Positions 11,347-50,911 are shown, counted from the first letter of the stretch. The stretch is DNA of 64,000 nucleotides from an uncultured Desulfuromonadales bacterium (GCA_903929485.1 CAIYUY010000211.1:3770-67769), one strand, 5' to 3'. Made by a program: numbers and translations. Notes: generated from the sequence alone by a model not told the origin.

Positions 11347-12849
11347 ATGAAACAACACCAACAGAACCACCCACAAAACAGACTTTTTCAGGCAGTTCCG
11401 CGCACTCTTGCGGTAACGGCTCTTTTTATTCTCACCTGGAGCATACCGTTAACCGCCATGGCCAGCGATCTCCAACTCAACACCCTCTCCGTTGACACTT
11501 CAAGCACCCTCAACGGCATAACAACGATCAACGCCACCCTCACGGCTACCGGTATCTCGTCAATCAATGCCACGGGAAATAATACGACGACCATCGGCAA
11601 CATCAACAACCAGACAAACCTCACCGGCGCCGTAACGATCAACAGCACCACGCCGGCAGTGACGACCATCGGAGCAACCGGCGGCGTCACAACTATCAAC
11701 GGTTTTACAAATATCAACGGCCCCGTCGCCATCAACAGCTCCGGTAACGGGAGTACCCTCATCGGCGCTGCCGCCGGAACGGTGGGTATCGCCGGAGTCA
11801 CAACCATTTCCGGCGCTACCACCGTGAGCAACTCGCTGGCCGTGACCGGGGCAACCAGTTCGACAGGTCTCTCCAACACAGGGATGCTCACCAACACGGG
11901 CGTTTTCACCAACAACGGCGCCACGAATCTTAACGGCACAGCATCAATTACCGGAGACCTTACCGTCACCGGCAACCTCACGACCTCCAACATCTCCTAT
12001 ATGACCATCGGTTCCATCACGACCACGGGGGGGATTTCCGGCGGCTCTCTCGCCACCACCGGGGCGTTAACCGCCGGATCGGCCACCCTCTCCGGAACGC
12101 TGGCCGCCGATCAGCTGAATGTCACCGGCGGCGTCACCGCTTCAGCCCTCACCGCCGCCACCGGCAACATGGCTACCATCACTTCCGGTACAATAGCCAA
12201 CAGCGGTCTCCTGAGCAGCGGTACACTTCAGGTCACCGGAATCAGCAGCACCAACGGCATTGTCAACAACGGAGAGCTCACCAGCAGCGGCGTTACCACC
12301 CTCACCGGGACAACCGGTATCAATACCACCGGGACGGCCGCCACAACCATCGGCAACAGCAATCCCGCCACCGTCGTCATCATGCGCGGTGGAGCGGGGA
12401 GTGTCGCCATCGGTAATGAGACAACGGCCATTGTCGGGGCCACCACCAGTATGACGCTGAACGGCAGCGGGGTAACTTTCAAGAATACGGCCAACGGGGG
12501 GGGAGCGGTGAAGATTACCGGCGTGGCTGACGGCGTCTCCGGCTACGATGCCGCCAATATGCGACAACTCCAAGGATTGGAAGCACGACTGAACAGCTCG
12601 CTGAAGGCGCAGGAAGTGACGCTCTCCCGTGGTGTCGCCATGGCAGCCGGACTTGCAGCCATCCCTCAAGTGGATCAGAACAAGAGCTATGCCCTGGGAA
12701 TCGGAACCGGGCTCTACAATGGCGAGGCGTCCCTGGCCATCGGCGCCAGCATGAGGCTTGCCGAAAATGCAGTCGTCAAGGCCGGCCTGAGCTTCTCTCC
12801 CGGCGGCGAAGCCCCCATGGGGAACGTGGGGATGGGACTTTCCTGGTAA
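11347..12849 (+). CDS. Trimeric autotransporter adhesin (YadA-like C-terminal anchor)
   Basis: 500 aa with a signal peptide and a T/N/G-rich repetitive passenger (TTINATLTATGISSINATGNNTTTIG...). The C-terminal segment YDAANMRQL...GVAMAAGLAAIPQ...SYALGIGTGLYNGEASLAIGAS...GMGLSW is typical of the YadA anchor. Confidence 0.8.
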   Translation: MKQHQQNHPQNRLFQAVPRTLAVTALFILTWSIPLTAMASDLQLNTLSVDTSSTLNGITTINATLTATGISSINATGNNTTTIGNINNQTNLTGAVTINSTTPAVTTIGATGGVTTINGFTNINGPVAINSSGNGSTLIGAAAGTVGIAGVTTISGATTVSNSLAVTGATSSTGLSNTGMLTNTGVFTNNGATNLNGTASITGDLTVTGNLTTSNISYMTIGSITTTGGISGGSLATTGALTAGSATLSGTLAADQLNVTGGVTASALTAATGNMATITSGTIANSGLLSSGTLQVTGISSTNGIVNNGELTSSGVTTLTGTTGINTTGTAATTIGNSNPATVVIMRGGAGSVAIGNETTAIVGATTSMTLNGSGVTFKNTANGGGAVKITGVADGVSGYDAANMRQLQGLEARLNSSLKAQEVTLSRGVAMAAGLAAIPQVDQNKSYALGIGTGLYNGEASLAIGASMRLAENAVVKAGLSFSPGGEAPMGNVGMGLSW

Positions 12850-33157: not shown

Positions 33158-34597
33158 TCAGAGATACGGTGAGAACAATTTTGCCCCGCTGTCCCGGAGT
33201 TTTTCCGGAAGCGACCGTCCCGACAGTTCTCCGGGAAGGACCCGTCGAGACATGGTCAGCGCCTCCAGGAAATGAGCTTCCAGTTCCCCGCAAAAATCGG
33301 GATCGTAAAGTTCAAGATTCAGTTCGAAATTGAGACGCAGGCTGCGGGGGTCCAGATTGGCGGAACCGATGAGTCCCCAGACACCGTCCACAAGAAACAG
33401 CTTGGTATGGACGAAGGGGGGAGGATGGTAATAAATTTTGATGCCAAACCGGAGCAGTTCAGGAAGAAACGCCCGATTGGCCCAGTGGACAAAGAGGAGA
33501 TTGTTTTGTCGGGGCAGGATGATGGTGACATCAACCCCCCGCAGGGCGGCGGTGGCCAGGGCGGAAATCAGTGATCTCCCCGGAATAAGATAGGGGGTCA
33601 TGATTTGAACCCGCTCCCTGGCACAGGAAAGCGCCCCGATGATGATCCACTGTAGCTTCCGGTACTCCCGGTCGGGGCCATCGGCTATCCCCCTGACAGT
33701 AGAGTTCCCCATCGGCAGAAGCTCCGGGAAGCAGGCGGGATCGTCAAGAAACTCCCCGGTGGTAAAATACCAATCCTCAAGAAAGCTCTTCTGCAGGTCG
33801 GCCACCACCGGACCCGTCACGCTAAAATGAAGATCCACCACCGGTCGGGAAGCAGACTTAACCAGGTGCCGGTCGCTGATATTCATCCCCCCCGTAAAAG
33901 CCATCCGCCCGTCGATGATCAATAGTTTCCGGTGGTTGCGCAGATTAACGTAGATCCCCCTCACCAACGGCAGAAATCGCCCCACCCGGACCCCGGACCC
34001 CTTGAAAAGTCGCATGCCGCTGGGGAAGGAGTAGAGTTCACCCAGGCTGTCGATGAGCAATCGCACGGCAACGCCACGCCCCGCAGCCTCCCGGAGCTGC
34101 GCCGCAAACGCTTCCCCGGTCCGGTCATTGTCAAAGATATAACTGCTCAAGTGTACCGATTCCCGGGCGCCGGCGATGGCGGCCAGCATGGCGGGATAGG
34201 CCTCTTCGCCGTTTCGCAGAAGGGAGATACGGTTCCCCCCCAGAAGAAGCCCATGAGCCACCCGATCGGAGAGATTCCTCAGGGTCTCCAGGTGCCTCGC
34301 TTGGAGTGGCAGTTCCTTTGCTGCAAAAATCCCCGTGCGGTGGGCAATCTCGCCGTTCCCCAGTCGGCGACCGCTTTGGCGCCACTTGAGGGTCCGCCGG
34401 TGTATCCGGTTGGCCCCCAGGCTCCAGTAAAAAACCGCTCCCACCAAGGGAAGAGTCAGGCAGATGACCACCCAGACCAACGCCGACCGGGGGTCGCTCT
34501 TTCTCAGCAGGGCATGCCCCGCCGACCCCACCGCCACGATCAGGAGAGTAAGGACGATCATGATATGAAGGGTGTCGAACAGATGGTCCATGATCAT
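33158..34597 (-). CDS. cls: Cardiolipin synthase (PLD superfamily)
   Basis: 479 aa with N-terminal TM helices and two HKD motifs (NHRKLLIIDG...GGMNI and VHTKLFLVDG...GSANLD). It shares an ATGA overlap with the upstream PPTase gene. Confidence 0.88.
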   Translation of the reverse strand: MIMDHLFDTLHIMIVLTLLIVAVGSAGHALLRKSDPRSALVWVVICLTLPLVGAVFYWSLGANRIHRRTLKWRQSGRRLGNGEIAHRTGIFAAKELPLQARHLETLRNLSDRVAHGLLLGGNRISLLRNGEEAYPAMLAAIAGARESVHLSSYIFDNDRTGEAFAAQLREAAGRGVAVRLLIDSLGELYSFPSGMRLFKGSGVRVGRFLPLVRGIYVNLRNHRKLLIIDGRMAFTGGMNISDRHLVKSASRPVVDLHFSVTGPVVADLQKSFLEDWYFTTGEFLDDPACFPELLPMGNSTVRGIADGPDREYRKLQWIIIGALSCARERVQIMTPYLIPGRSLISALATAALRGVDVTIILPRQNNLLFVHWANRAFLPELLRFGIKIYYHPPPFVHTKLFLVDGVWGLIGSANLDPRSLRLNFELNLELYDPDFCGELEAHFLEALTMSRRVLPGELSGRSLPEKLRDSGAKLFSPYL

Positions 34598-35307
34598 ATC
34601 ACAGCGGCGCTCCCCGCGTAATTCGGGGGGAGCAGCAGATCATGGGAACCTGCCGAAACCGTCCCCGGTGGCTCCGGCCGACAAGCAGCATGAGAGTCTG
34701 TGGCAAAACCGGTCCCCCGCGCCTTAAGGGCGGCCTCCAAACGGCACCACTGCCGATAGAAAGCAGGGAGTTGCTCGGCCTGGGTCAGAGCAGCGATCCC
34801 ATCGCTTATCATCCGAGGAAAAAATTGTCGGGCGATGGGTTGCCACTCCATATCCGCTCCATACATTTCCAAATCAACCCCCACGGGACGGCGGGGGTGA
34901 AATCCCAACAGTATCAAGTCACCGGAATGGGCCACATTGAACTGTAGCGAAGAGGCCGTACAGGTCGGGTCGAGAAAGGGCTTGCCGTGAGGAGTCTGAA
35001 CGAACCTTACGGCGGCGGGAACAACCCCCAGGGGACGGGCCAGCAACAGCCGGAGCACCCCACGCCCCAGGAGGAGACAATCCCGATCCTCCTGCCGGCG
35101 CAGTCGGTAAAGCCTCCCTCTTTCTTCCGGCGACAACAGGGGAAGAAGGTCGCCGGCAATTTCAAGAGCCAGTTGTCGCTGAATCAACCAGATGGCGGGA
35201 GGAGCCTGTGGAGAGTAGTCCAGCCATCCGTCACCACCCCAGGGAAGATCAGGATGCCAGGGTCGGGGGGTCAGACAAGAATTCAGATTGCAGCACACCG
35301 TCTTCAT
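34594..35307 (-). CDS. 4'-phosphopantetheinyl transferase, Sfp type
   Basis: 237 aa with FNVAHSGDLILLGF...VGVDLE and WCRLEAALKARG. It shares an ATGA overlap with the NRPS stop codon. Confidence 0.85.
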   Translation of the reverse strand: MKTVCCNLNSCLTPRPWHPDLPWGGDGWLDYSPQAPPAIWLIQRQLALEIAGDLLPLLSPEERGRLYRLRRQEDRDCLLLGRGVLRLLLARPLGVVPAAVRFVQTPHGKPFLDPTCTASSLQFNVAHSGDLILLGFHPRRPVGVDLEMYGADMEWQPIARQFFPRMISDGIAALTQAEQLPAFYRQWCRLEAALKARGTGFATDSHAACRPEPPGTVSAGSHDLLLPPNYAGSAAVI

Positions 35308-38300
35308 TCTCCCGTCCCTGGATTTTCGTTTTCATGAAGAAGTTGCCGCAAAAAGGCCGCGAGAGGCTCCGCGCCATGGGATCTGTAATAATCATGATGG
35401 TTATCGAAAAGCCGATGAACTTTCACCCCGCGGCGGGCGTAGTAATACCAGAAGAGAAACATACGGCTCTTGGTCTTTGTGGTGGTAACAAGATTAAGTT
35501 CAAGATCAAGTCGAGGCGGCCTATAAAATGTGACAATAGTAGAGGTATGATCCATGACATGGGGCGAATCCTGGTGTGCAAATCTGGCATTGTTGATTGT
35601 TTCGATTTCCGGTGATTTCTTTGGTTTTCTCAAAAGAATCTTTGCATAGAAGAGCTGCGAAACCAAGCGCTTCTTCAGATAGGTAATTCTGCCCCCCTCG
35701 GGACGATGACGAAGTTTGTCTACATGATAAGAAACACGGCCCATCAAATAACTCCCCAATTCCAGCCACTCGTTGAAGTTGAGCCATTTGTGAATATTGG
35801 CGTTTGCATGGGTATCCAGTAGCGTCAGGAGTCCGATAGCGCCCCCCTGACGGAGAAGATGATCGGCAACGGCGTAAGCAAGCCACCCCCCGACGGAACA
35901 GCCGACGAGATGATAAGGGCCGGTAGGCTGCAAGGAGCGAATCTGAGCGGCATAATGCTCTGCCATGGCATCAATGGACGTGTGACGTGGTGTCTTGCCA
36001 TCCAGTCCGACAGCCTGAAAACCATAAACGGGTCGCTCCGGCGCAAGATTCTGCGCCATGTGAACAGACCAGTAGGCATCACCTCCCCACCCATGGAGAA
36101 CGAAAAGGGGCGTTTTTTCTCCTTTCGGTTGAAGCGGCACGAGGGAACTCCAGGCAGGAGTTTCCTCATCATTACGAAGCAGCACAGCCAGAGTGGCGAC
36201 GGTCTGGGCATGAAAGAAAGAGGCAATGGGTACCTTATGCCCCACAAGATGATCTATTTCAGAGGCGAGACGAGCGGCAATGAGGGAATGACCTCCCATT
36301 GAAAAGAAATTGGCGTGGATACCGAAGTCGGATTGTCCCAGTGCCTTATGCCAGAGTTGAAGCAACTGCTGCTCCAGGAGATTCCGAGGCGTTGCATGAA
36401 GATCTCCGGCCGAATTGTCGCTATCGGTAAAAGCCTCCGGTTCCGGTAGCCCCTTACGGTCTATTTTGCCGTTGGGTGTGAGCGGCAGAGCTTCCGGAAA
36501 GACAAAAGCCGCGGGAAGCATGTAGTCGGGAAGCGTCACCTTCAGGAAGGCGCGCAGCTCACCGGGAGCGGGCCGATCTGCTGCGGGAACCACATAGGCG
36601 ACAAGACGCTTCTCTCCGTCGGCATCGCTTCCGGCACTGACCAGAGCCTCCCGAACCCCCGGATGAGCCGCCAGCGCTGCTTCGATCTCCCCCAGCTCGA
36701 TGCGAAAGCCCCTGATCTTCACCTGATGATCCATCCGGCCAAGAAACTCAATGTTCCCGTCTGACCGATACCGGGCCAGATCCCCGCTTTTATAGAGCCG
36801 GGCGCCGGGAACGTCACTGAAGGGATCGGAAATGAATTTTTCCGCGGTAAGTTCCGGCCGGTTCAGATAACCCCTGGCTAGTCCGGCGCCGCCGATATGC
36901 AGCTCTCCGGGAACGCCCATGGGGGTCGATTCAAGATGACTGTCGAGGATGTAGAGCTGTGTATTCGCTACGGGACGACCGATAGTGACAACAGCATGAT
37001 CCGTATCTTGCTCAGTTACCAGGTAACAACTCGACCAGATGGTCGTTTCGGTAGGACCGTAGAGATTCCAGAGCGATGCCCCTCGAAAAAGCATCTTTCG
37101 TGCCAGGAATCCGGACAAAGCCTCCCCACCCACCAACATTTTCAAATTTGATTTCCCGGACCACCCGGCATCAATAAGCATCAGCCAAGTGGCCGGTGTT
37201 GCCTGAAATACAGTGATATCATATTTATCCAGTAGCGTGATCAGAGCCACCGGATCCACAGCATCAAAACTCCGAGTCACCACAATACGTCCGCCGCAGA
37301 TCAAGGGGAGATAGATCTCCAGACCAAAAATATCAAAGCTGACGGTGGTCACGGCCAGAAGCGAATCCTTCCTGTTGAAGCCTGGATTCCGTTGCATTGT
37401 CTGGAGAAAATTGAAAAGTCCGCCATGTCCTACCGCCACCCCCTTAGGTTTTCCGGTTGAACCGGAAGTATAAATGATGTAGGCAAGGTGCTCCGGAGCA
37501 ACCATCTGGTGAGGGTTCATCTCCGACTGACAAGCGATGTCCGTCCACTGGGTGTCCAGAGAAAGAGTATGTTCAACTTTCTGTGTCAGGCGATGGCGCA
37601 CCGTTTCCTGGGTAATCAGTATCCGGGCGCCAGAATCCTCCAGCATGAACGAAAGGCGCGTTGACGGATATCCCGGATCCAGCGGCACATAGGCCCCCCC
37701 CGCCTTGAGAACTGCCAAGAGCGCCACGATCATCTCCGGGGAGCGTTCCAGGGCAATGGCAACCGGAGCATCGGGAACGACCCCCAGCCGTATCAACGTG
37801 TGCGCCAGCTGATTGGCACGGGCATTGAGTTCTCGGTAGGTGAGCCTTTCATCCTGGAAGAGCACTGCTACTGCGTCCGGACTCTCTTCAACCTGCGCCT
37901 CGAAGAGTTGATGCACGCATTTTTCCGGTAATGGCGCCGCCGTGTTATTCCAGTCAACCAGGAGTCGCCGCCTCTCCTCTGAAGGGAGAATAGCAAGAAG
38001 AGAGACCTGTTGTTCAGGATTGGCGACAACCGAACGGAGCAGTTCCTGAAACTGCCCACCCAGCCGCTGGATTGTCTCTTCATCGAAAAGATCGAGAGCA
38101 TATTCCAGGGTAGCGGTCAGTCCCCCATGGAGTTCGGTGACGGATAGCGTCAGATCGAACTTCGCCGTCACCCCCTCGCTTTCGGCAAGGGTGACATCCA
38201 GTCCGGGGAGGAGCGGCGCCGCAGGATCGGCATTCTGGAGAATGAACATGATCTGGAAGAGCGGGGCATGGGCGAGGTTCCGCGTAACCCCCAGTGACTC

Positions 38301-41300
38301 CACCAGTATTTCGAAGGGAAGCTCCTGGTGCGCATAGGCATCCAGACAAGTATGCCGGAGACGGGCCAGAAGTTCCAGGAACGGGGGATTACCGCTCAGG
38401 TCGGCGCGCAAGGCCAGGGTGTTGACGAAGAAACCGATGAGCGGCTCCACCGCGCTCTGAGTCCGGTTCGCCACCGGGGAACCGATAACCAGATCCTCTT
38501 CACCGCTGTAGCGGGAAAGCAGGATGGCCCAAGCCGCCAGGAGCGTCATGAACAGGGTCGCTCCGGAGCGACGCCCCAAATCATGCAGTTCGGCGGTGAG
38601 GAGAGCATCCACGGCAAAGGCGACTGTTCCCCCCTGATGACTCTGCCGGGGCGGACGGGGTCGATCGGTGGGAAGATTGAGACAATCCGGTGCGCTGGCC
38701 AGGTGATTTAGCCAGTACTCCAGCCGGTACCGCAGACGTTCCCCGGTAAGCCAGCCACGCTGCCAGACGGCATAGTCGGCGTACTGAATCTCCAGTTCAG
38801 GAAGAGGTGACGGCTTACCTTCCCGGAAGGCGCCATAGAGGATGGCCAACTCCCGAAACAGAATGTCCATGGACCAACCGTCGGCGGCCACGTGCTGCAG
38901 GGTCAGGAGGAGCGTCCAGGCGGACTCCCCACGCCGCAGCAGACGGAGACGCAGCGGCTCATCCCGGGCAAGGTCGAAGGGGTCGGAGGCTTCCCGGCGA
39001 GCCAACTCACGGGCTTCCATCTCCGGATCGACACTTTCCCGCAGATCCACAATCGGCAGGGTTATGACGCTCGCCGGGGAGACAAGTTGTATCGGCTCAT
39101 CTCCCCGCAGCAGCAGACGGCTGCGCAACACTTCGTGACGACGGATGATTTCCGAGAAGGCGCGGTTCAGCGCCTCAAGATCCAGGGGTCCGGCCAGTTC
39201 CAGCACGAGGGGAATGTTGTAGGTGGAACTGGGCCCTTCCAACTGATGAAGAAACCAGAGCCGCTGCTGGGCAAAGGAGAGCGGCGGCTCCCGGTCCCGT
39301 GGGGCCGGGGAAATGAGCCGCGCAGCGGCTTCTTCCTGCCCATGAGCGTCGCCTTGTTGAATGATATGAATCCAATCAGCAAGTCCGGCCACGGTGGGGA
39401 ATTCAAAGAGCCGGCGCACCGGTATATCCATCTCCAACGCGTCACGCAACCGGGAGGTGAGCCGGGTAGCCAGCAGGGAGTGCCCCCCCAGTTCGAAAAA
39501 GTTGTCGTGAATACCGATACCCGGTTGATGCAGAAGGGTCGCCCAGAGGCCGACAAGAACCTCTTCCAGCGGGTTGCGGGGGGCGGTTCCGGTGGAGGCC
39601 GAGGTACAGGCGTCAGGTTCCGGCAGGGCCTTCCTGTCGATCTTGCCGTTGGGGGTAAGCGGCAGCGCCTTCAGGAAGACAAAAGCCGCGGGGAGCATGT
39701 AGTCGGGAAGCGTCATCTTCAGGAAGGTGCGCAGCTCTCCGGGAGCGGGCCGATCTGCAACGGGAACTACATAGGCGACAAGACGCTTCTCCCCGTCGGC
39801 ATCGCTTCCGGTAATGACCAGAACCTCCCGAACCCCCGGATGAGCCGCCAGCGCCGCTTCGATCTCCCCCAACTCGATGCGAAAGCCCCTGATCTTTACC
39901 TGATGATCCATCCGCCCCAGAAACTCGATGTTCCCGTCGGGACGATAGCGGACCAGGTCGCCGGTTTTGTAGAGACGGGCGCCGGGAGCGTCACTGAAGG
40001 GATCGGGAATGAATTTTTCCGCGGTGAGTTCCGGCCGGTTCAGATAACCCCGGGCGAGCCCGGCGCCGCCGATATGCAGCTCTCCGGGAACACCCAGAGG
40101 AACGGGACGAAGGGAGCCATCCAGGATGAAAAGCGTCGTGTTGCTGATCGGCTTACCTATGGGCACCTGTCCCTCAATGACGCTGGAACCGTTCATGAGG
40201 TGGCAGCAAGCAAACGTGGTGCTCTCGGTGGGACCATAGCCGTTGATGAAGCGGTGCCCGGGAGGAAGAATCTCGAGAAACTTCCGGACGTGGGGAGCGG
40301 AAAGAAAATCACCCCCGGCGAGTATCTGGCGGACGCCGGTCAGACTCTGGAGCTCATGGTCAACCATCAGGTGAAAGAGAGATGCGGTAAGCCAGAGGAT
40401 GGTGATGCCCCGGCTGCCGATGAATGCTCCCAACTCTTCCGGAGTCGGTATCCGGGGAGAAAAGACGACGAGACCGGCGCCGTTGAGCAACGCTCCCCAG
40501 ATCTCAAAGGTGGCGGCATCAAAAGAGATGGGCGCAAACTGGAGGAACAGGTCTGAAGGGGTGATTACGACATAATTGGTATTTTTCACGAGGCGTACGA
40601 CTGAACGATGTTGGATCAGACACCCCTTGGGTTTCCCGGTGGAACCGGAGGTATAGATGATGTACGCGAGGTTCTCCGGAGCCACGGGCTGGTTGGGGTT
40701 ACTCTCCGGTTGTCGGGCTATGGCGGCCGCTTCACTGTCCAGACAAAGAGTATGCTCCACGCTCCGCGGCAGGCGGAGAAAGAGCGATTCCCGGGTGATG
40801 AGGATTCGTGCCCCGGAATCTTCCAGCATGAAGGCCAGACGTTTTGTGGGATACTCCGGGTCCAGCGGGACATACGTGCCTCCGGACTTGAGGATCGCCA
40901 GGAGGGCGACAATCATCTCCGAGGAGCGCTCCAGTGCTATGGCCACCGGCGCATCCGGGCCGACTCCCCTTTCGATAAGGGCATGAGCCAGCTGATTGGC
41001 CCGGACGTTCAGTTCCGCATAGGTGAGGCTTTCATCCTGGTAGAGCACCGCTACCGCGTCCGGACTCTCCTCCACTTGTGCTTCAAAGAGTTGATGTACG
41101 CATTTTTCCGGCAGCGGCGCCGCCGTGTCATTCCAGTCAACAAGGAGGCGTTTCCTCTCCTGGGGAGGGAGAATATCAAGGAGGGAGACCTGTTGTTCGG
41201 GGTTGGCGACAACCGAACGGAGCAGCTTCCGGAACTGTCCCCCCAACCGCTCAATTGTCTCCTCATTAAAGAGATCCGTGGCGTATTCCAGCGTGGCGGC

Positions 41301-44300
41301 CAGTGCGCCGTCTCCTTCGGTAATGGAAAGTGTCAGGTCGAACTTTGCCGTCGTGCTCTCGCTCTTGGCAAGAGTGATGTCCAGTCCGTCAAGGAGCGGC
41401 GCTTCCTCATCGGTATTCTGGAGAACGAACATGACCTGGAAGAGTGGCCCGTGGGCAAGATTGCGCGTTACCCCCAGTGATTCGACAAGTATCTCGAAGG
41501 GAAGTTCCTGGTGGGCATACGCTTCCAGACAGGTATGCCGAATACGGGCCATAAGTTCCAGGAACGAGGGATTACCGCTCAGGTCGGCGCGCAAGGCCAA
41601 GGTGTTGACGAAGAAACCGATAAGCGGCTCCACCGCGCTCTGAGTCCGGTTCGCCACCGGGGAACCGATGATGAGGTCATCTTCTCCACTGTAACGTGAA
41701 AGAAGGGTGGCCCAAGCCGCCAGGAGCGTCATGAACAGGGTCGCGCCGGAGCGACGTCCCAATTCATGAAGGTCGCTGGTGAGAGCCGAATCAACGGTAA
41801 AGGAAATGACTCCCCCTCGGTGACTTTGCCGTGACGGACGTGGCCGGTCAGTGGAGAGATTCAGGCAATCCGGAGCGCCGGCCAGGTGGCTTTGCCAGTA
41901 GTGAAGCTGCCGGTTTCGACGTTCCCCGGTGAGCCAGCCACGCTGCCAGACAGCATAGTCTGCGTACTGAATTCCAAGTTCAGGAAGAGGTGACGGCTTG
42001 CCTTCCCGAAAGGCGCCATAGAGGATAGCCAACTCCCGAAACAGGATGGCAAGGGACCAGCCGTCTGCGGCCACGTGCTGCAGGGTCAGGAGAAGCGTCC
42101 AGGCGGACTCCCCACGCCTCAGCAGACGGAGACGCAGCGGCTCATCCCGGGCAAGGTCGAAGGGGTCGGCTGCTTCCCGGCGAGCCAACTCATGGGCTTC
42201 CATCTCCGGATCGACGCTTTCCCGCAGATCCACAACCGGCAGGGTCACGACACCGGCCGGGGAGACAAGTTGTATCGGCTCATCTCCCCGCAGCAGCAGA
42301 CGGCTGCGCAACACTTCGTGACGACGGATGATTTCCGAGAAGGCGCGGTTCAGCGCTTCAAGATCAAGGGGTCCGGCCAGTTCCAGCACGAGGGGTATGT
42401 TGTAGGTGGAACTTGGCCCTTCCAGCTGATGAAGAAACCACAAGCGTTGCTGGGCAAAGGAGAGCGGCAGCTCCCGGTCCCGTGGGGCCGGGGGAATGAG
42501 CCGCGCAGCGGCTTCTTCCTGCCCATGGGCGTCGCCTTGTTGAAGGGTGCGGATCTGGCGAGCAAATTCGGCCACGGTGGGAGCTTCAAAGAGCCGGCGT
42601 ACCGGGATATCCATCTCCAGCTCGTCACGCAGCCGGGAGGTGAGCCGGATAGCCAGCAGGGAATGCCCGCCATGTTCAAAAAAATTATCGTGAATGCCGA
42701 TACCGGGTTGATGCAGGAGGGTCGCCCAGAGGCAGACAAGAACCTCTTCCAGCGGGTCGCGGGGGGCGGCTCCGGAGGAGGTGCAGGCGTCAGGTTCAGG
42801 CAGGGCCTTGCGATCGACTTTACCGTTGGGGGTAAGCGGCAGCGCCGGAAGGAATACCCAGGCTGCGGGGAGCATGTAGTCGGGAAGCGAGCGTTGCAGG
42901 AAGGTGCGCAGCTCCCCGGGAGCGGGCTGCTCTGCAACGGAAACGACATAGGCGACCAGACACTTCTCCCCGTCGGCATCGCTTCCGGCAATGACCAGGG
43001 CCTCACGAACCCCCGGATGAGCCGCCAGCGCCGCATCGATCTCTCCCAGCTCGATGCGAAAGCCTCTGATTTTAACCTGGTGGTCCATTCGTCCGAGAAA
43101 CTCGATGTTACCATCAGGGCGATAGCGGGCCAGGTCGCCGGTTTTATAGAGACGGGCGCCGGGAACGTCGCTGAAGGGATCGGGAATGAATTTTTCGGCG
43201 GTAAGTTCCGGCCGGTTCAGATAACCACGGGCGAGCCCCGCGCCGCCGATGTGCAGTTCTCCGGGGACGCCGATGGGAGTCGGCTGGAGATGGCCGTCAA
43301 GGATATAGATTCGGGTGTTGGCGATGGGGCGGCCGATGGATGGCGCTTCACCCGGAGAGCGCATTTTGAACGTAGTATAAACAGTATCTTCCGATGGGCC
43401 GTACAGATCGTAAACCTTCCGGATCGTCGGAACGCCATAGATGCGATCTGCAAGATTCATGGTGAGCGGCTCGCCGGCTAGATTCACCACCCGCACGCCG
43501 GCAGGGATTCCGCCTTGAACCAGCAGGGTGTTCATTGCGGAAGGGACGGTATTGATCAGCGTCACCATGTCACGACATTTAATCGTCAGTAATTCCAGAA
43601 CGTTTTCAACCAGAATCACGGCGCCCCCAACCGAAAGAGGAAGAAAGAGTTCGTAAACAGATAGATCAAAACAGATGGAAGTTCCAGAAAGAACGCACCG
43701 CAATTCGTCCACGGTCCATACCGTACGCGCCCATTGCAGTAACGCAGTCGGGCCACGGTGTTCAATGGCGACTCCCTTGGGTTTCCCGGTGGAACCGGAG
43801 GTATAGATGATGTAGGCAAGATTCTCCGGAGCCACGGGCTGGTTGGGGTTACTCTCCGGTTGCCGGGCAATGGCTGCCGCATCAGTATCATAACAAAGAA
43901 TACGTTCCACGATCCGTGGCAGGCGATGAGACAGCGATTCCTGGGTGATGAGGATTCGCGCCCCGGAATCTTCCAGCATGAAAACCAAGCGTGTTGTCGG
44001 ATACTCAAGATCCAGCGGAACATAAGCGCCCCCTGCCTTGAGGACCGCAAGAAGCGCGACGATCATCTCCAGGGAGCGTTCGAGGGCGATGGCCACCGGA
44101 GCGTCAGGAACAACTCCCAAACCGATCAGGGCATGCGCCAGTTGATTGGCCCGAGCGTTCAGCTCCCCATAGGTGAGGCGTTCGTCCTGGAAGAGCACTG
44201 CGGTTGCATCAGGGCTCTCTTCGACCTGCGCCTCGAAGAGTTGATGCACACATTTATCCGGTAACGGTGTCGCCGTGTCGTTCCACTGGACAAGCATCAG

Positions 44301-44516
44301 CCGCATTTCTTCCGGAGACGGAAAAGTAGGGATTGCTGAATCGGGACAAAGAGTTTCTTCCGGAGACGGAACTGTAGGAATGTCAGGATCGGGACAAATA
44401 GTTTCTTCCGGAGACGGAACTGTAGGAATGTCAGGATCGGGACAAATAGTTTGTTCCAACGACGGTTCGCTTGGAACCAAGAGGAGAGGCTGTTGCCGCG
44501 GCGCTGCTTGTTTCAT
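35304..44516 (-). CDS. Non-ribosomal peptide synthetase, three modules: A-T-C-A-T-C-A-T-TE
   Basis: 3070 aa. Three A domains each carry LAYIIYTSGSTGKPKG, GELHIGGAGLARGY, Y K[TS]GDL, KIRGFRIELGEI and NGK[VI]DRK. Three carrier domains carry GGHSL. Two C domains carry LSFAQQRLWFL...QHVAADGWS. The C-terminal TE carries LHGWGGD...GCSVGG. Approximate map on the minus strand (nt, within roughly 30 nt): A1 44255-42801, T1 42761-42552, C1 42476-41163, A2 41105-39624, T2 39578-39369, C2 39293-37980, A3 37922-36450, T3 36395-36180, TE 36119-35307. Confidence 0.93.
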   Translation of the reverse strand: MKQAAPRQQPLLLVPSEPSLEQTICPDPDIPTVPSPEETICPDPDIPTVPSPEETLCPDSAIPTFPSPEEMRLMLVQWNDTATPLPDKCVHQLFEAQVEESPDATAVLFQDERLTYGELNARANQLAHALIGLGVVPDAPVAIALERSLEMIVALLAVLKAGGAYVPLDLEYPTTRLVFMLEDSGARILITQESLSHRLPRIVERILCYDTDAAAIARQPESNPNQPVAPENLAYIIYTSGSTGKPKGVAIEHRGPTALLQWARTVWTVDELRCVLSGTSICFDLSVYELFLPLSVGGAVILVENVLELLTIKCRDMVTLINTVPSAMNTLLVQGGIPAGVRVVNLAGEPLTMNLADRIYGVPTIRKVYDLYGPSEDTVYTTFKMRSPGEAPSIGRPIANTRIYILDGHLQPTPIGVPGELHIGGAGLARGYLNRPELTAEKFIPDPFSDVPGARLYKTGDLARYRPDGNIEFLGRMDHQVKIRGFRIELGEIDAALAAHPGVREALVIAGSDADGEKCLVAYVVSVAEQPAPGELRTFLQRSLPDYMLPAAWVFLPALPLTPNGKVDRKALPEPDACTSSGAAPRDPLEEVLVCLWATLLHQPGIGIHDNFFEHGGHSLLAIRLTSRLRDELEMDIPVRRLFEAPTVAEFARQIRTLQQGDAHGQEEAAARLIPPAPRDRELPLSFAQQRLWFLHQLEGPSSTYNIPLVLELAGPLDLEALNRAFSEIIRRHEVLRSRLLLRGDEPIQLVSPAGVVTLPVVDLRESVDPEMEAHELARREAADPFDLARDEPLRLRLLRRGESAWTLLLTLQHVAADGWSLAILFRELAILYGAFREGKPSPLPELGIQYADYAVWQRGWLTGERRNRQLHYWQSHLAGAPDCLNLSTDRPRPSRQSHRGGVISFTVDSALTSDLHELGRRSGATLFMTLLAAWATLLSRYSGEDDLIIGSPVANRTQSAVEPLIGFFVNTLALRADLSGNPSFLELMARIRHTCLEAYAHQELPFEILVESLGVTRNLAHGPLFQVMFVLQNTDEEAPLLDGLDITLAKSESTTAKFDLTLSITEGDGALAATLEYATDLFNEETIERLGGQFRKLLRSVVANPEQQVSLLDILPPQERKRLLVDWNDTAAPLPEKCVHQLFEAQVEESPDAVAVLYQDESLTYAELNVRANQLAHALIERGVGPDAPVAIALERSSEMIVALLAILKSGGTYVPLDPEYPTKRLAFMLEDSGARILITRESLFLRLPRSVEHTLCLDSEAAAIARQPESNPNQPVAPENLAYIIYTSGSTGKPKGCLIQHRSVVRLVKNTNYVVITPSDLFLQFAPISFDAATFEIWGALLNGAGLVVFSPRIPTPEELGAFIGSRGITILWLTASLFHLMVDHELQSLTGVRQILAGGDFLSAPHVRKFLEILPPGHRFINGYGPTESTTFACCHLMNGSSVIEGQVPIGKPISNTTLFILDGSLRPVPLGVPGELHIGGAGLARGYLNRPELTAEKFIPDPFSDAPGARLYKTGDLVRYRPDGNIEFLGRMDHQVKIRGFRIELGEIEAALAAHPGVREVLVITGSDADGEKRLVAYVVPVADRPAPGELRTFLKMTLPDYMLPAAFVFLKALPLTPNGKIDRKALPEPDACTSASTGTAPRNPLEEVLVGLWATLLHQPGIGIHDNFFELGGHSLLATRLTSRLRDALEMDIPVRRLFEFPTVAGLADWIHIIQQGDAHGQEEAAARLISPAPRDREPPLSFAQQRLWFLHQLEGPSSTYNIPLVLELAGPLDLEALNRAFSEIIRRHEVLRSRLLLRGDEPIQLVSPASVITLPIVDLRESVDPEMEARELARREASDPFDLARDEPLRLRLLRRGESAWTLLLTLQHVAADGWSMDILFRELAILYGAFREGKPSPLPELEIQYADYAVWQRGWLTGERLRYRLEYWLNHLASAPDCLNLPTDRPRPPRQSHQGGTVAFAVDALLTAELHDLGRRSGATLFMTLLAAWAILLSRYSGEEDLVIGSPVANRTQSAVEPLIGFFVNTLALRADLSGNPPFLELLARLRHTCLDAYAHQELPFEILVESLGVTRNLAHAPLFQIMFILQNADPAAPLLPGLDVTLAESEGVTAKFDLTLSVTELHGGLTATLEYALDLFDEETIQRLGGQFQELLRSVVANPEQQVSLLAILPSEERRRLLVDWNNTAAPLPEKCVHQLFEAQVEESPDAVAVLFQDERLTYRELNARANQLAHTLIRLGVVPDAPVAIALERSPEMIVALLAVLKAGGAYVPLDPGYPSTRLSFMLEDSGARILITQETVRHRLTQKVEHTLSLDTQWTDIACQSEMNPHQMVAPEHLAYIIYTSGSTGKPKGVAVGHGGLFNFLQTMQRNPGFNRKDSLLAVTTVSFDIFGLEIYLPLICGGRIVVTRSFDAVDPVALITLLDKYDITVFQATPATWLMLIDAGWSGKSNLKMLVGGEALSGFLARKMLFRGASLWNLYGPTETTIWSSCYLVTEQDTDHAVVTIGRPVANTQLYILDSHLESTPMGVPGELHIGGAGLARGYLNRPELTAEKFISDPFSDVPGARLYKSGDLARYRSDGNIEFLGRMDHQVKIRGFRIELGEIEAALAAHPGVREALVSAGSDADGEKRLVAYVVPAADRPAPGELRAFLKVTLPDYMLPAAFVFPEALPLTPNGKIDRKGLPEPEAFTDSDNSAGDLHATPRNLLEQQLLQLWHKALGQSDFGIHANFFSMGGHSLIAARLASEIDHLVGHKVPIASFFHAQTVATLAVLLRNDEETPAWSSLVPLQPKGEKTPLFVLHGWGGDAYWSVHMAQNLAPERPVYGFQAVGLDGKTPRHTSIDAMAEHYAAQIRSLQPTGPYHLVGCSVGGWLAYAVADHLLRQGGAIGLLTLLDTHANANIHKWLNFNEWLELGSYLMGRVSYHVDKLRHRPEGGRITYLKKRLVSQLFYAKILLRKPKKSPEIETINNARFAHQDSPHVMDHTSTIVTFYRPPRLDLELNLVTTTKTKSRMFLFWYYYARRGVKVHRLFDNHHDYYRSHGAEPLAAFLRQLLHENENPGTGE
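44304..44447. repeat. 3 x 48-bp in-frame tandem repeat at the 5' end of the NRPS gene
   Basis: It encodes ICPDPDIPTVPSPEET twice, then the diverged copy LCPDSAIPTFPSPEEM. gtttcttccggagacgg recurs at 44353 and 44401. Confidence 0.85.
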
Positions 44517-44719: not shown

Positions 44720-45265
44720 CTACCCTTCCCCCTTCTCCACCCAGCACTGGGCCAGAGCCAGATGCTTGAGAAAAGCGGCGGCGAAACGGAAACCGGCGCG
44801 GGGGACCGGGACGTTAATAAAATCATTACCCCGGCCAACGAAGAGGGCGAATTTACGCTCTCCCGGCGCCGTCCAGTAGGACTCGATCCCCACTTCGGTC
44901 TGTACCTTACCGGCGGAACTCTCGTAGACATGGGGAGGAAGACGGTAGGAAACACTGGTTTTTGCGCCGGAGCTTTTTACCTTGAAGTGATTGGCCTCGT
45001 ACTCCTGGGGAGAAACTCCCGGGTTCAGCAGCATCTCCATGGCCCACGCCAGATCATGGGCCTCGGACGGCTCGCTGACGAAGCGGATCTGGGTCGGCTT
45101 GTCAGTGGAACCGGGGGGCTTGAGGAGGAAGAAGCGGAACTGAACCCGCCCTTCGCTCCCCTCATGACCATGACCGTTCACCTGTTTCACCCCCGGCTGG
45201 AGTTCCAGTCCGCTGTGGGCCGCGTAAAAAATCTGCCTCACGGTACGCTCTGTCTTATCGGTCAT
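44720..45265 (-). CDS. Hypothetical protein (181 aa), no recognised family
   Basis: The ATG at 45265 is preceded by GGAGG at 8-nt spacing. The ORF is uninterrupted and lies between scpB and the NRPS gene on the same strand. Confidence 0.55.
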   Translation of the reverse strand: MTDKTERTVRQIFYAAHSGLELQPGVKQVNGHGHEGSEGRVQFRFFLLKPPGSTDKPTQIRFVSEPSEAHDLAWAMEMLLNPGVSPQEYEANHFKVKSSGAKTSVSYRLPPHVYESSAGKVQTEVGIESYWTAPGERKFALFVGRGNDFINVPVPRAGFRFAAAFLKHLALAQCWVEKGEG

Positions 45266-45289
45266 GACGAACACCTCCGTATTTAAAAC

Positions 45290-49929: not shown

Positions 49930-50016
49930 TGGTGCCGAAGACTGGAATCGAACCAGCACGAGGAATCCCCCACCAGAACCTGAATCTGGCGCGTCTACCA
50001 ATTCCGCCACTTCGGC
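49930..50016 (-). tRNA. tRNA-Leu (anticodon CAG)
   Basis: An 87-nt class II tRNA folded by hand. It begins gccgaagtggcggaattggtagacgc, has the anticodon arm ccaga-TTCAGGT-tctgg, a long variable arm, and ends cttcggcacca. Confidence 0.88.
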
Positions 50017-50083
50017 ACGTAAAAAGATGTATATCATGAGGTCTCGACCAATGCAAGAAAATTCTGGCACGGTGAGGAGAGAT

Positions 50084-50911
50084 ATGTGCGGCAACGGACG
50101 ACGAAGGTTGCAGGTGACACTGTCAGGAAGAATAAGGATACCATGCCTGCTGGCTCTGACCCTCTCCCTGCTCCTCCCCCTGCCAAGCGGCAACGCGGCG
50201 ACTCCCGGTGATGCGCCGCCCGTGGCCACAGTCACCTCCCCTCCCCTCTTTGCTCCTTCCCTGGAATTCGACAAGCTGAATACCCTGATCCGTGACCGTC
50301 AAATTCCCAAGGAGGAGGCAAGGCGGACACTCTCTCTCCTCCTCCACCGAATCAAGGAAGAGTATTACCGGGACGGTGGAAAAACCTTTTCCCGCTCCGA
50401 CTGGATCTTTCCGCTCCGGGGATACACGGCCGCGGCGGTGGGGGAAGGCCCAGCCCACGGCTACATTCCCAAGGGGTATGATTATTACGACGGCAACCGC
50501 CACAACGGGCACCCTTCACTGGATATATTCATTCACGACAGCAACCAGGATGACCTGGACGACCGGACAGGAGAATATGTTTCGGTGCGGGCCGTTACCG
50601 GAGGGGTGGTGGTGGCGCGGGAAACATCATGGCGAAAGGGGAGCAAACTTCGGGGAGGAAAATATCTCTGGCTGTATGATCCGACCACGGACCATCTTTT
50701 CTACTATGCGCATCTGCGGGAACTCTCCGTTCAAGTCGGGACTCGGGTAGAGCCGGGCGCCCCCTTGGGCCTCGTGGGGCGAACAGGGTTGAACGCCAAC
50801 AAAACACGCTCCCCCACTCATCTTCACCTGACCTGTCTTTCCACCGCCACCCCGGGGATGCGTCCCGAAAACATCCACTCGGACCTTCTCCGAGCAAAGA
50901 ACATGAAATAA
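50084..50911 (+). CDS. M23 family (LytM-type) peptidase
   Basis: GHPSLDIF (HxxxD), YYAHL, GRTG and THLHL motifs, with a signal-like segment IPCLLALTLSLLLPLP. The start is uncertain (50027, 50036, 50051 or 50084). Confidence 0.75.
   Translation: MCGNGRRRLQVTLSGRIRIPCLLALTLSLLLPLPSGNAATPGDAPPVATVTSPPLFAPSLEFDKLNTLIRDRQIPKEEARRTLSLLLHRIKEEYYRDGGKTFSRSDWIFPLRGYTAAAVGEGPAHGYIPKGYDYYDGNRHNGHPSLDIFIHDSNQDDLDDRTGEYVSVRAVTGGVVVARETSWRKGSKLRGGKYLWLYDPTTDHLFYYAHLRELSVQVGTRVEPGAPLGLVGRTGLNANKTRSPTHLHLTCLSTATPGMRPENIHSDLLRAKNMK

Follow-up and report, generated by a model that had tools for sequence, protein, structure and literature searches.

In the hormaomycin synthetase, a nonribosomal peptide synthetase (NRPS) of an actinomycete, Crüsemann, Kohlhaas and Piel reportedly found in 2013 that the adenylation (A) domains are alike except for a central specificity stretch, which is said to have been taken as marking natural recombination points. 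The Crüsemann engineered unit corresponds to GrsA K205–A322, and the flavodoxin-like subdomain of Kries, Niquille and Hilvert (2015), which is a structure-guided engineering construct and not an evolutionary unit, corresponds to GrsA T221–I352 (both as quoted in PMC7486941). Recombination hotspots between motifs A2 and A4 and downstream of approximately A5 were described by Calcott et al. 2020 (PMC7486941). For the microcystin synthetases McyB and McyC, Baunach et al. 2021 (PMC8097286) described a natural partial exchange of the core of the A domain (Acore) that is longer than the engineered units and keeps both the linker between the condensation (C) and A domains (the C-A linker) and the interface between the C-terminal A subdomain (Asub) and the thiolation (T) domain. 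Here, we analyze a trimodular NRPS gene located in a 64,000-nucleotide stretch of DNA from an uncultured Desulfuromonadales bacterium (GCA_903929485.1, CAIYUY010000211.1:3770-67769). This whole stretch is called the window, and positions are counted from its first letter. The three A domains of the gene share a common scaffold and carry strongly diverged cores. The phenomenon is already documented (Crüsemann 2013; PMC8097286; PMC7486941), and the present gene is a new, clean example.

The gene resembles the systems of Baunach et al. and Calcott et al. in that part of the Acore is exchanged, the linker and Asub are intact, and the breaks lie near conserved motifs. Those systems concern orthologous modules compared across strains, for which donor-like sequences were identified, whereas the modules compared here are paralogues within one gene, and the mosaic ages of their flanks suggest repeated conversion within the gene. 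The host differs as well, the hormaomycin synthetase being from an actinomycete and the present gene from an uncultured relative of the Geobacteraceae. In GrsA numbering, the variable stretch runs from about residue 199 to about residue 370, that is, from the end of motif A3 to the start of motif A6. It encloses the Crüsemann unit and is longer. It also contains the Kries subdomain, with the same pocket residues (GrsA 235–331), and is approximately 40 residues longer; the boundaries T221 and I352 were not matched. An earlier reading of the window, made from the sequence only, had proposed a natural counterpart of the A-subdomain swapping used in NRPS engineering. The natural segment is larger than the engineered subdomains.

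The NRPS gene occupies positions 35304–44516 on the minus strand as a single open reading frame (ORF) of 3070 residues. Pfam matches (AMP-binding ×3, E = 3e-270; AMP-binding_C ×3; Condensation ×2; PP-binding ×3; Thioesterase ×1) and motif anchors in the translation indicate the domain order A-T-C-A-T-C-A-T-TE, or A1-T1-C1-A2-T2-C2-A3-T3-TE when numbered by module, with TE denoting the thioesterase. The A-domain motifs occur in triplicate, namely A3 LAYIIYTSGSTGKPKG, A5 YGP(T/S)E, A6, A7 YK(T/S)GD, A8 GRMDHQVKIRG, and A10 NGK(V/I)DR, and all three PP-binding domains contain the carrier serine motif GGHSL (residues 616, 1677, and 2741). Both Condensation domains have QHVAADGWS in the HHxxxDG position, with the first His changed to Gln, and the GxSxG motif of the Thioesterase domain is GCSVGG. 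The stop codon of the NRPS gene overlaps the start codon (ATGA) of a gene encoding an Sfp-type 4′-phosphopantetheinyl transferase (PPTase; 34594–35307, minus strand; Pfam AASDHPPT_N and ACPS). The gene thus has the A motifs, carrier serines, C motifs, terminal TE, and cognate PPTase of a modular type I NRPS. It is predicted to encode a working trimodular enzyme that would load an Ala-like residue, add Val and then Gly, and release the product through the TE.

The modules are repeats of each other outside the cores. As the sequence-only reading had noted, the 15-mer GGCGCCATAGAGGAT has exactly two occurrences, at 38829 and 42012, giving a period of 3183 bp (1061 codons), and two matches were seen in 0 of 100 shuffles. 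The C-domain stretch PLSFAQQ...WLTGER (residues 684–866 vs 1745–1927) indeed differs at only 8 of 183 residues, and at 36 of 549 nucleotides. At the same 3183-bp offset, T1-C1 (residues 567–1123; 41148–42818) and T2-C2 (residues 1626–2184; 37965–39641) are 86% identical at both the protein and the DNA level, with a mosaic nucleotide identity that ranges from 0.72 to 0.98 in sliding windows. Module 3 shares the A-domain flanks only: homology to modules 1 and 2 stops just past A10, and its TE-facing T domain shows no sequence relationship to T1 and T2, so that T3-TE (residues 2685–3070; 35307–36464) is unique to this module. Homology between modules spans the C-A linker (LLVDWNDTA) to GKPKG and resumes from GVPGEL through A10. 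The start of module 1 coincides exactly with the C-A linker (MLVQWNDTA vs LLVDWNDTA), as though an elongation module had been its source.

The N-terminal A-domain flanks, which hold motifs A1–A3, lie at residues 74–248 in module 1 (43773–44297, including a remnant of the C-A linker), 1124–1298 in module 2 (40623–41147), and 2185–2359 in module 3 (37440–37964). The C-terminal flanks, with motifs A6–A10, lie at residues 416–566 (42819–43271), 1475–1625 (39642–40094), and 2534–2684 (36465–36917). Between modules, the N-terminal flank (KCVHQ..GKPKG) is 78–85% identical in protein and 75–82% in DNA, and the C-terminal flank (GVPGEL..LTPNGK) is 89–91% identical in protein and 85–91% in DNA. The flanks had been called near-identical; their similarity is high, but at 78–91% (protein) and 75–91% (DNA), with synonymous divergence (dS) of 0.36–1.3, that wording is too strong.

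Between these flanks lie variable cores of about 167–176 residues, at residues 249–415 (43272–43772), 1299–1474 (40095–40622), and 2360–2533 (36918–37439) in modules 1, 2, and 3, respectively. The 5′ break comes immediately behind ...AAACCCAAGGG, where the A3 motif GKPKG ends (residues 248, 1298, and 2359; positions 43773, 40623, and 37440), and similarity recovers at GGCGTnCCCGGAGA, the start of the A6 motif GVPGEL (residues 416, 1475, and 2534; positions 43271, 40094, and 36917). These coordinates lie within approximately 10 nucleotides (nt) of those given in the sequence-only reading, which had described the segment between A3 and A6 as dissimilar among modules and had proposed sliding-window and recombination-breakpoint analyses; both were performed and bear this description out. 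In 30-codon windows of a codon-aware alignment of the three modules, nucleotide identity in the A-domain flanks was 0.72–0.94. In the cores, amino acid identity fell to 0.12–0.35 and nucleotide identity to 0.28–0.49, so the divergence is not uniform and the drop at the core is sharp. A maximum chi-squared test for recombination breakpoints gave values of 32–52 for the 5′ break, compared with a null maximum of 19–23 (0 of 500 permutations, p < 0.002), for all three pairs of modules. The longest exact repeat is 41 nt in the A-domain flanks and, in the window, 101 nt between C1 and C2; the 41-nt matches, the longest between the flanks of A1 and A2, abut the 5′ break. The breaks inside the Acore are abrupt and statistically supported, and the C-A linker and Asub are kept.

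Synonymous sites also separate flanks from cores. The proportion of synonymous differences (pS, Nei–Gojobori) is 0.29–0.62 in the flanks and 0.77–0.87, which is saturated, in the cores. At residues that are conserved between modules, codon identity is 0.54–0.79 in the flanks and 0.23–0.39 in the cores (Fisher p = 4e-4 to 5e-7). Counting only these residues removes alignment and amino acid selection as confounders, and the difference in synonymous codon identity therefore indicates that flank and core are of different age. The repeated segments themselves are not of one age either. The dS is 0.18 in the N-lobe of the C domain, 0.35–0.46 in the T domain and the A-domain C-flank (0.36–0.62 for the C-flank of module 1), and 0.74–1.3 in the A-domain N-flank, with a value of 0.8 for both the central part and the end of the C domain; across T1-C1, it ranges from 0.18 to 0.81. 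Between modules 2 and 3, the N- and C-flank of the same A domain differ in synonymous divergence (p = 1.9e-5). The closest pair of modules also switches along the repeat, from modules 2 and 3 in alignment columns 1–30 (the C-A linker) to modules 1 and 2 in columns 121–174 (just before A3), and back to modules 2 and 3 in columns 406–506 (Asub). Tract ages are thus mosaic and the nearest paralogue changes along the repeat, as in concerted evolution. Such a pattern is not expected from one duplication and a subsequent single swap in each module, but it is expected from repeated conversion between modules with tracts that end at the core.

Affinities outside the gene are reversed between flanks and cores. 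Compared with any of approximately 740 outside A domains, the flanks reach at most 58–61% (N-flank) and 68–75% (C-flank) identity, whereas within the gene they are 79–84% and 88–92% identical to each other, respectively. The cores, which are approximately 30% identical to each other, reach 51–62% identity with outside cores of matching predicted specificity. Among 176 outside A domains, the best identities were 58% for the N-flank, 68% for the C-flank, and 51–54% for the core; a search with A1 against 5.8 billion proteins gave 60%, 75%, and 62%, respectively. The best outside identities of cores 1, 2, and 3 were 62%, 60%, and 53%, and no core donor above 62% identity was found in the A1 search of 5.8 billion proteins or, for all cores, among the comparator A domains. 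The ranking of a further search, with A2 against 1.84 billion representatives, was dominated by giant multi-module proteins, and its matches were used only as a baseline set (see below). Core and flank hence have discordant histories by both affinity and synonymous sites.

The cores align to GrsA (1AMU) residues 199–370 and 201–367, enclosing the pocket residues 235–331, and the variable segment holds nine of the ten specificity-code positions. The best solved relative of core 1 is McyA (8jbr, E = 3.9e-53), the best match of the whole A2 domain is LgrA, and the best solved relatives of core 3 are 4zxh (E = 3.4e-41) and 5u89. We take McyA (8jbr) to be Ala-type, LgrA to be Val-type, and the AB3403-type relatives of core 3 to be Gly-type. 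The codes derived by hand, DLYNNALVYK for core 1, DAFWLGGTFK for core 2, and DILQLGLIWK for core 3, all differ, and DAFWLGGTFK is listed as a Val code (PMC9113097). Together, matches and codes suggest Ala-like, Val, and Gly as the predicted substrates of A1, A2, and A3.

From these observations we infer, with a probability of roughly 75%, that the module scaffolds have been homogenized by recurrent intragenic exchange that stops at the core, the cores being either imported or retained. The sharp breaks, the synonymous contrast, and the reversed affinities of flanks and cores indicate recombination and not merely faster evolution of the core. The same three lines of evidence support the earlier proposal of module duplication or gene conversion in which only the substrate-binding part was exchanged or retained. 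Mechanistically, the modules of this one gene would have recombined with each other repeatedly by homologous exchange (gene conversion or unequal crossing-over), which would have kept the scaffolds alike. The scaffold in this sense would comprise the C-A linker, A1–A3, and A6–A10 with Asub; in modules 1 and 2, it would extend to the T and C domains. Exchange tracts would end at the conserved DNA encoding motifs A3 and A6, and the core may be too diverged to recombine, may be guarded by selection for substrate choice, or both. The outcome for each module would be a shared scaffold combined with an anciently diverged core that defines specificity.

Several points weigh against this reading. The flank dS of 0.4–1.3 implies that most exchanges are old, and the case for conversion being ongoing comes only from differences between assemblies, described below, which are ambiguous. 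The substrate codes were read by hand from the motif register and not with a prediction tool. The base composition, considered in the next paragraph, fits GC-biased conversion but fits a later foreign import of the cores and T3-TE equally. Finally, searches of genome, metagenome, and protein collections yielded no orthologous NRPS from another species. A scan of genome contigs with module 2 gave a best identity of 51%, and a T3-TE query gave 62% at best, on a 1.6-kb contig. A scan of metagenome contigs with T3-TE gave no match, and exact look-ups of the 3070-residue and 2997-residue products found none on record. Taken with the donor searches above, these yielded no identifiable donor and no orthologue with an alternative core.

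The strongest alternative, which we regard as possible but not probable, is that a tandem 3183-bp unit was duplicated and that each module then received a foreign Acore by recombination at A3 and A6, the similarity of the flanks being left over from the duplication. This is the model preferred in PMC8097286. It is attractive as an origin of the flanks because conversion between modules that start at approximately 50% identity is mechanistically difficult, and it agrees with the nearest relative of every core being an outside A domain of matching specificity. Base composition also lends it some support. Repeated segments have a GC content at third codon positions (GC3) of 0.669, and unique segments one of 0.545 (p = 6e-11), the latter with values of 0.37 for the N-terminus, 0.58 for core 1, 0.54 for core 3, 0.50 for T3, and 0.51 for the TE; cores 1 and 3 and T3-TE, at 0.50–0.58, lie below the repeats and below every neighboring gene (0.61–0.81). 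However, core 2 is an exception among the unique segments, with an ordinary GC3 of 0.665, and no donor was found, the best core identities being those given above. Moreover, the unequal ages of the flanks of modules 2 and 3 and the switching of the closest pair would require later conversion in any case.

With regard to composition, the sequence-only reading had pointed out that the TE-encoding 3′ end is AT-rich, and GC content is indeed 0.45 at 35400–35699 compared with approximately 0.60 elsewhere in the gene. This tail is genuine coding sequence, being conserved through its stop codon in P0001, a relative with 62% identity, and belongs to the wider low-GC3 pattern of the unique segments. 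The idea that the whole NRPS gene is compositionally foreign was rejected, its overall GC3 of 0.63 being at the low edge of, and within, the range of the neighboring genes.

To judge how unusual the mosaic is, two baselines were used, one made up of 189 pairs of A domains that share a locus, taken from 72 genomic loci (with medians of 54% identity for the N-flank, 39% for the core, and 68% for the C-flank), and one of 610 pairs within the same protein, drawn from 150 large NRPS representatives. With a mosaic defined by N- and C-flanks that are at least 75% and 85% identical, respectively, and a core that is at most 40% identical, one pair in the first baseline (from Corallococcus praedator, L023) resembles the present gene, and seven pairs in the second, from three proteins (P0196, P0208, and P0214), show the mosaic. 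The Acore mosaic is hence uncommon yet recurrent, occurring in roughly 2% of the sampled NRPSs. The three proteins show the same flank/core mosaic, but their flanks are, at least in some pairs, 97–100% identical, and the events are therefore much younger than those in the present gene, where the flanks are 79–92% identical and dS is 0.4–1.3.

These baselines also bear on a second alternative, whole-module duplication without recombination, in which the core diverged fast under positive or relaxed selection and the flanks stayed constrained. A-domain cores are in general less conserved than flanks, as the baseline medians show (N-flank 51–54%, core 38–39%, C-flank 63–68%), but the gap between flanks and core in the present gene, approximately 55 percentage points, is near the 99th percentile. 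In addition, the cores show much greater divergence at synonymous sites of conserved residues and are the only segments with saturated pS, and the transition at A3 takes place within a few nucleotides. Cores that are approximately 30% identical to each other and approximately 50–62% identical to outside Ala-, Val-, and Gly-type cores would require massive convergence if they descended from a single ancestor. We consider this alternative very improbable.

The NRPS locus also occurs in metagenome assemblies and metagenome-assembled genomes (MAGs) from stratified lakes. Together with the identity of the AccA protein encoded in the window to Geomonas and Geobacter proteins (78–80%), this indicates that the host is an uncultured freshwater relative of the Geobacteraceae. 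The A-domain mosaic is present in six of six independent assemblies (the window and five others, from at least two pipelines), with only a few scattered variants in the A domains. An assembly artefact, in which repeat collapse or mis-phasing created the module similarity or the mosaic, is suggested by the population being known solely from metagenome assemblies, by contigs that break within the gene at repeats, and by other-module-like patches that differ between assemblies (with a 471-nt exact repeat in L080 and L089 vs 101 nt in the window), but it is highly unlikely given that the A domains are near-invariant across all six assemblies, that exact repeats in the A-domain flanks do not exceed 41 nt, and that each flank is contiguous with its unique core within one read length. 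For these reasons, the mosaic of the A domains was not created by assembly, and an artefact of this kind could touch only parts of the T and C domains.

It is in the T and C domains that the assemblies differ. Outside the NRPS gene, L080, L081, and L089 are approximately 99.97% identical to the window (3 mismatches in approximately 10 kb), whereas inside the gene they have 40–57 mismatches, all in the paralogous stretches of T1, C1, and C2. At almost all of these sites, one of the two alleles is the base found at the corresponding position in the other module. Residues 1815–1953 of C2 (38658–39074, minus strand) carry C1 sequence in L080 and L089, giving the 471-nt exact C1/C2 repeat, and diverged C2 sequence in the window and L088. 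Conversely, within residues 1006–1109 of C1 (patches at residues 1006–1035 and 1101–1109; 41190–41501, minus strand), the window matches C2, whereas L080 and L081 are distinct. The strain represented by L088 and L090, which is 0.3% diverged, adds short clusters; one of these, at residues 232–234 of module 1, beside the A3 boundary, matches module 2 in two assemblies that come from different pipelines. Another paralogue-matching patch in the T/C region lies at 42678–42710 (minus strand).

Treating every paralogue-matching variant as strong evidence of conversion was withdrawn for isolated single-nucleotide differences between strains. With no known ancestry these are uninformative, since ordinary mutation in the lineage of the window would give the same pattern, and dense clusters alone are informative. 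The dense patches reflect either segregating gene conversion or collapse or mis-phasing of repeats in short-read assembly. The finding that one pipeline yields both patch states and that different pipelines yield the same state leans toward real haplotypes, and the 471-nt exact repeat leans toward assembly collapse. We regard it as possible, but not probable, that the patches are real haplotypes in which conversion between modules has been caught in progress in the population. If so, C1 sequence would have replaced C2 over a length of more than 417 nt in part of the genomes and C2 sequence would have replaced C1 in others, with short tracts also in the A-domain flanks beside the A3 boundary, in genomic backgrounds that differ by approximately 0.03–0.3%. 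The population would then be a natural system in which to measure directly how fast, over what tract lengths, and within which boundaries NRPS scaffolds are homogenized, and to see that tracts stop at the core. These differences between assemblies are the sole part of the present findings that may be new, if real. The C-domain identity in the window (0.92–0.98 in places) may be slightly inflated or deflated by the same ambiguity; the A-domain result is unaffected.

Several public contigs (L082–L086; window 36406–37916) end inside the NRPS gene, at residues ~2201, ~2614, and ~2704. The ends at ~2201 and ~2614 coincide with exact inter-module repeats of 26–31 nt. These contig ends are repeat-induced breaks, and such genes fragment in assemblies made with k = 31.

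For NRPS engineering, exchange boundaries that have already been tried by evolution are needed. The present gene offers three paralogous A domains on one scaffold, with junctions resolved to the nucleotide, after GKPKG and before GVPGEL. With their differing predicted specificities, the three domains form a compact template for a “long Acore” swap, in agreement with PMC8097286. Acore mosaicism is hereby extended to an uncultured freshwater relative of the Geobacteraceae, and the general view of NRPS evolution is unchanged.

Downstream of the NRPS gene, in the stretch 33158–35307 (minus strand) that holds the PPTase gene and a PLD/cardiolipin-synthase-like gene, the stop codon of the former overlaps the start codon of the latter, which suggests that NRPS, PPTase, and PLD genes form one translationally coupled operon. 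It is unusual for a small NRPS to be accompanied by a PLD-family enzyme. The other genes near the NRPS are housekeeping genes (metF, metH, ligA, scpA/B, accA, dnaE, and uvrC), and no second NRPS or polyketide synthase gene was found within the 64-kb window. Directly upstream of the NRPS gene lies a 184-residue ORF (44720–45274, minus strand) that has no Pfam match and is conserved and called, in a 181-residue version, in all sister contigs; it could be a member of the cluster. Elsewhere in the window, a gene at 11347–12849 (plus strand) encodes a YadA-type trimeric autotransporter adhesin, with anchor and stalk domains, and is unrelated to the NRPS.

In contigs of sister species that were recognized by their AccA (88–94% identical), synteny with the window is lost after the M23 peptidase and tRNA-Leu genes, before the NRPS. 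In the window, tRNA-Leu(CAG) (49930–50016, minus strand) abuts the M23 peptidase gene (50027–50911). Past the M23 peptidase, one sister contig (L094) carries a phage-integrase-like gene and another (L097) an AAA_14/DUF4143 gene. The junction between tRNA-Leu and the M23 peptidase gene resembles a hotspot of integration.

At the 5′ end of the NRPS ORF (44306–44457, minus strand), Tandem Repeats Finder detected a 48-bp tandem repeat with 3.2 copies, which encodes ICPDPDIPTVPSPEET three times and has a GC3 of 0.37. The repeat lies within the first 73 codons, and its copy number varies by assembly, L088 having one unit fewer. Gene calls in sister contigs start the NRPS at M74 (2997 residues), that is, past the repeat, which may be translated as part of the NRPS. 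In modules 2 and 3, the C-A linker begins with a sequence (PPQER/PSEER) similar to the last residues of the repeat unit (PSPEE-).

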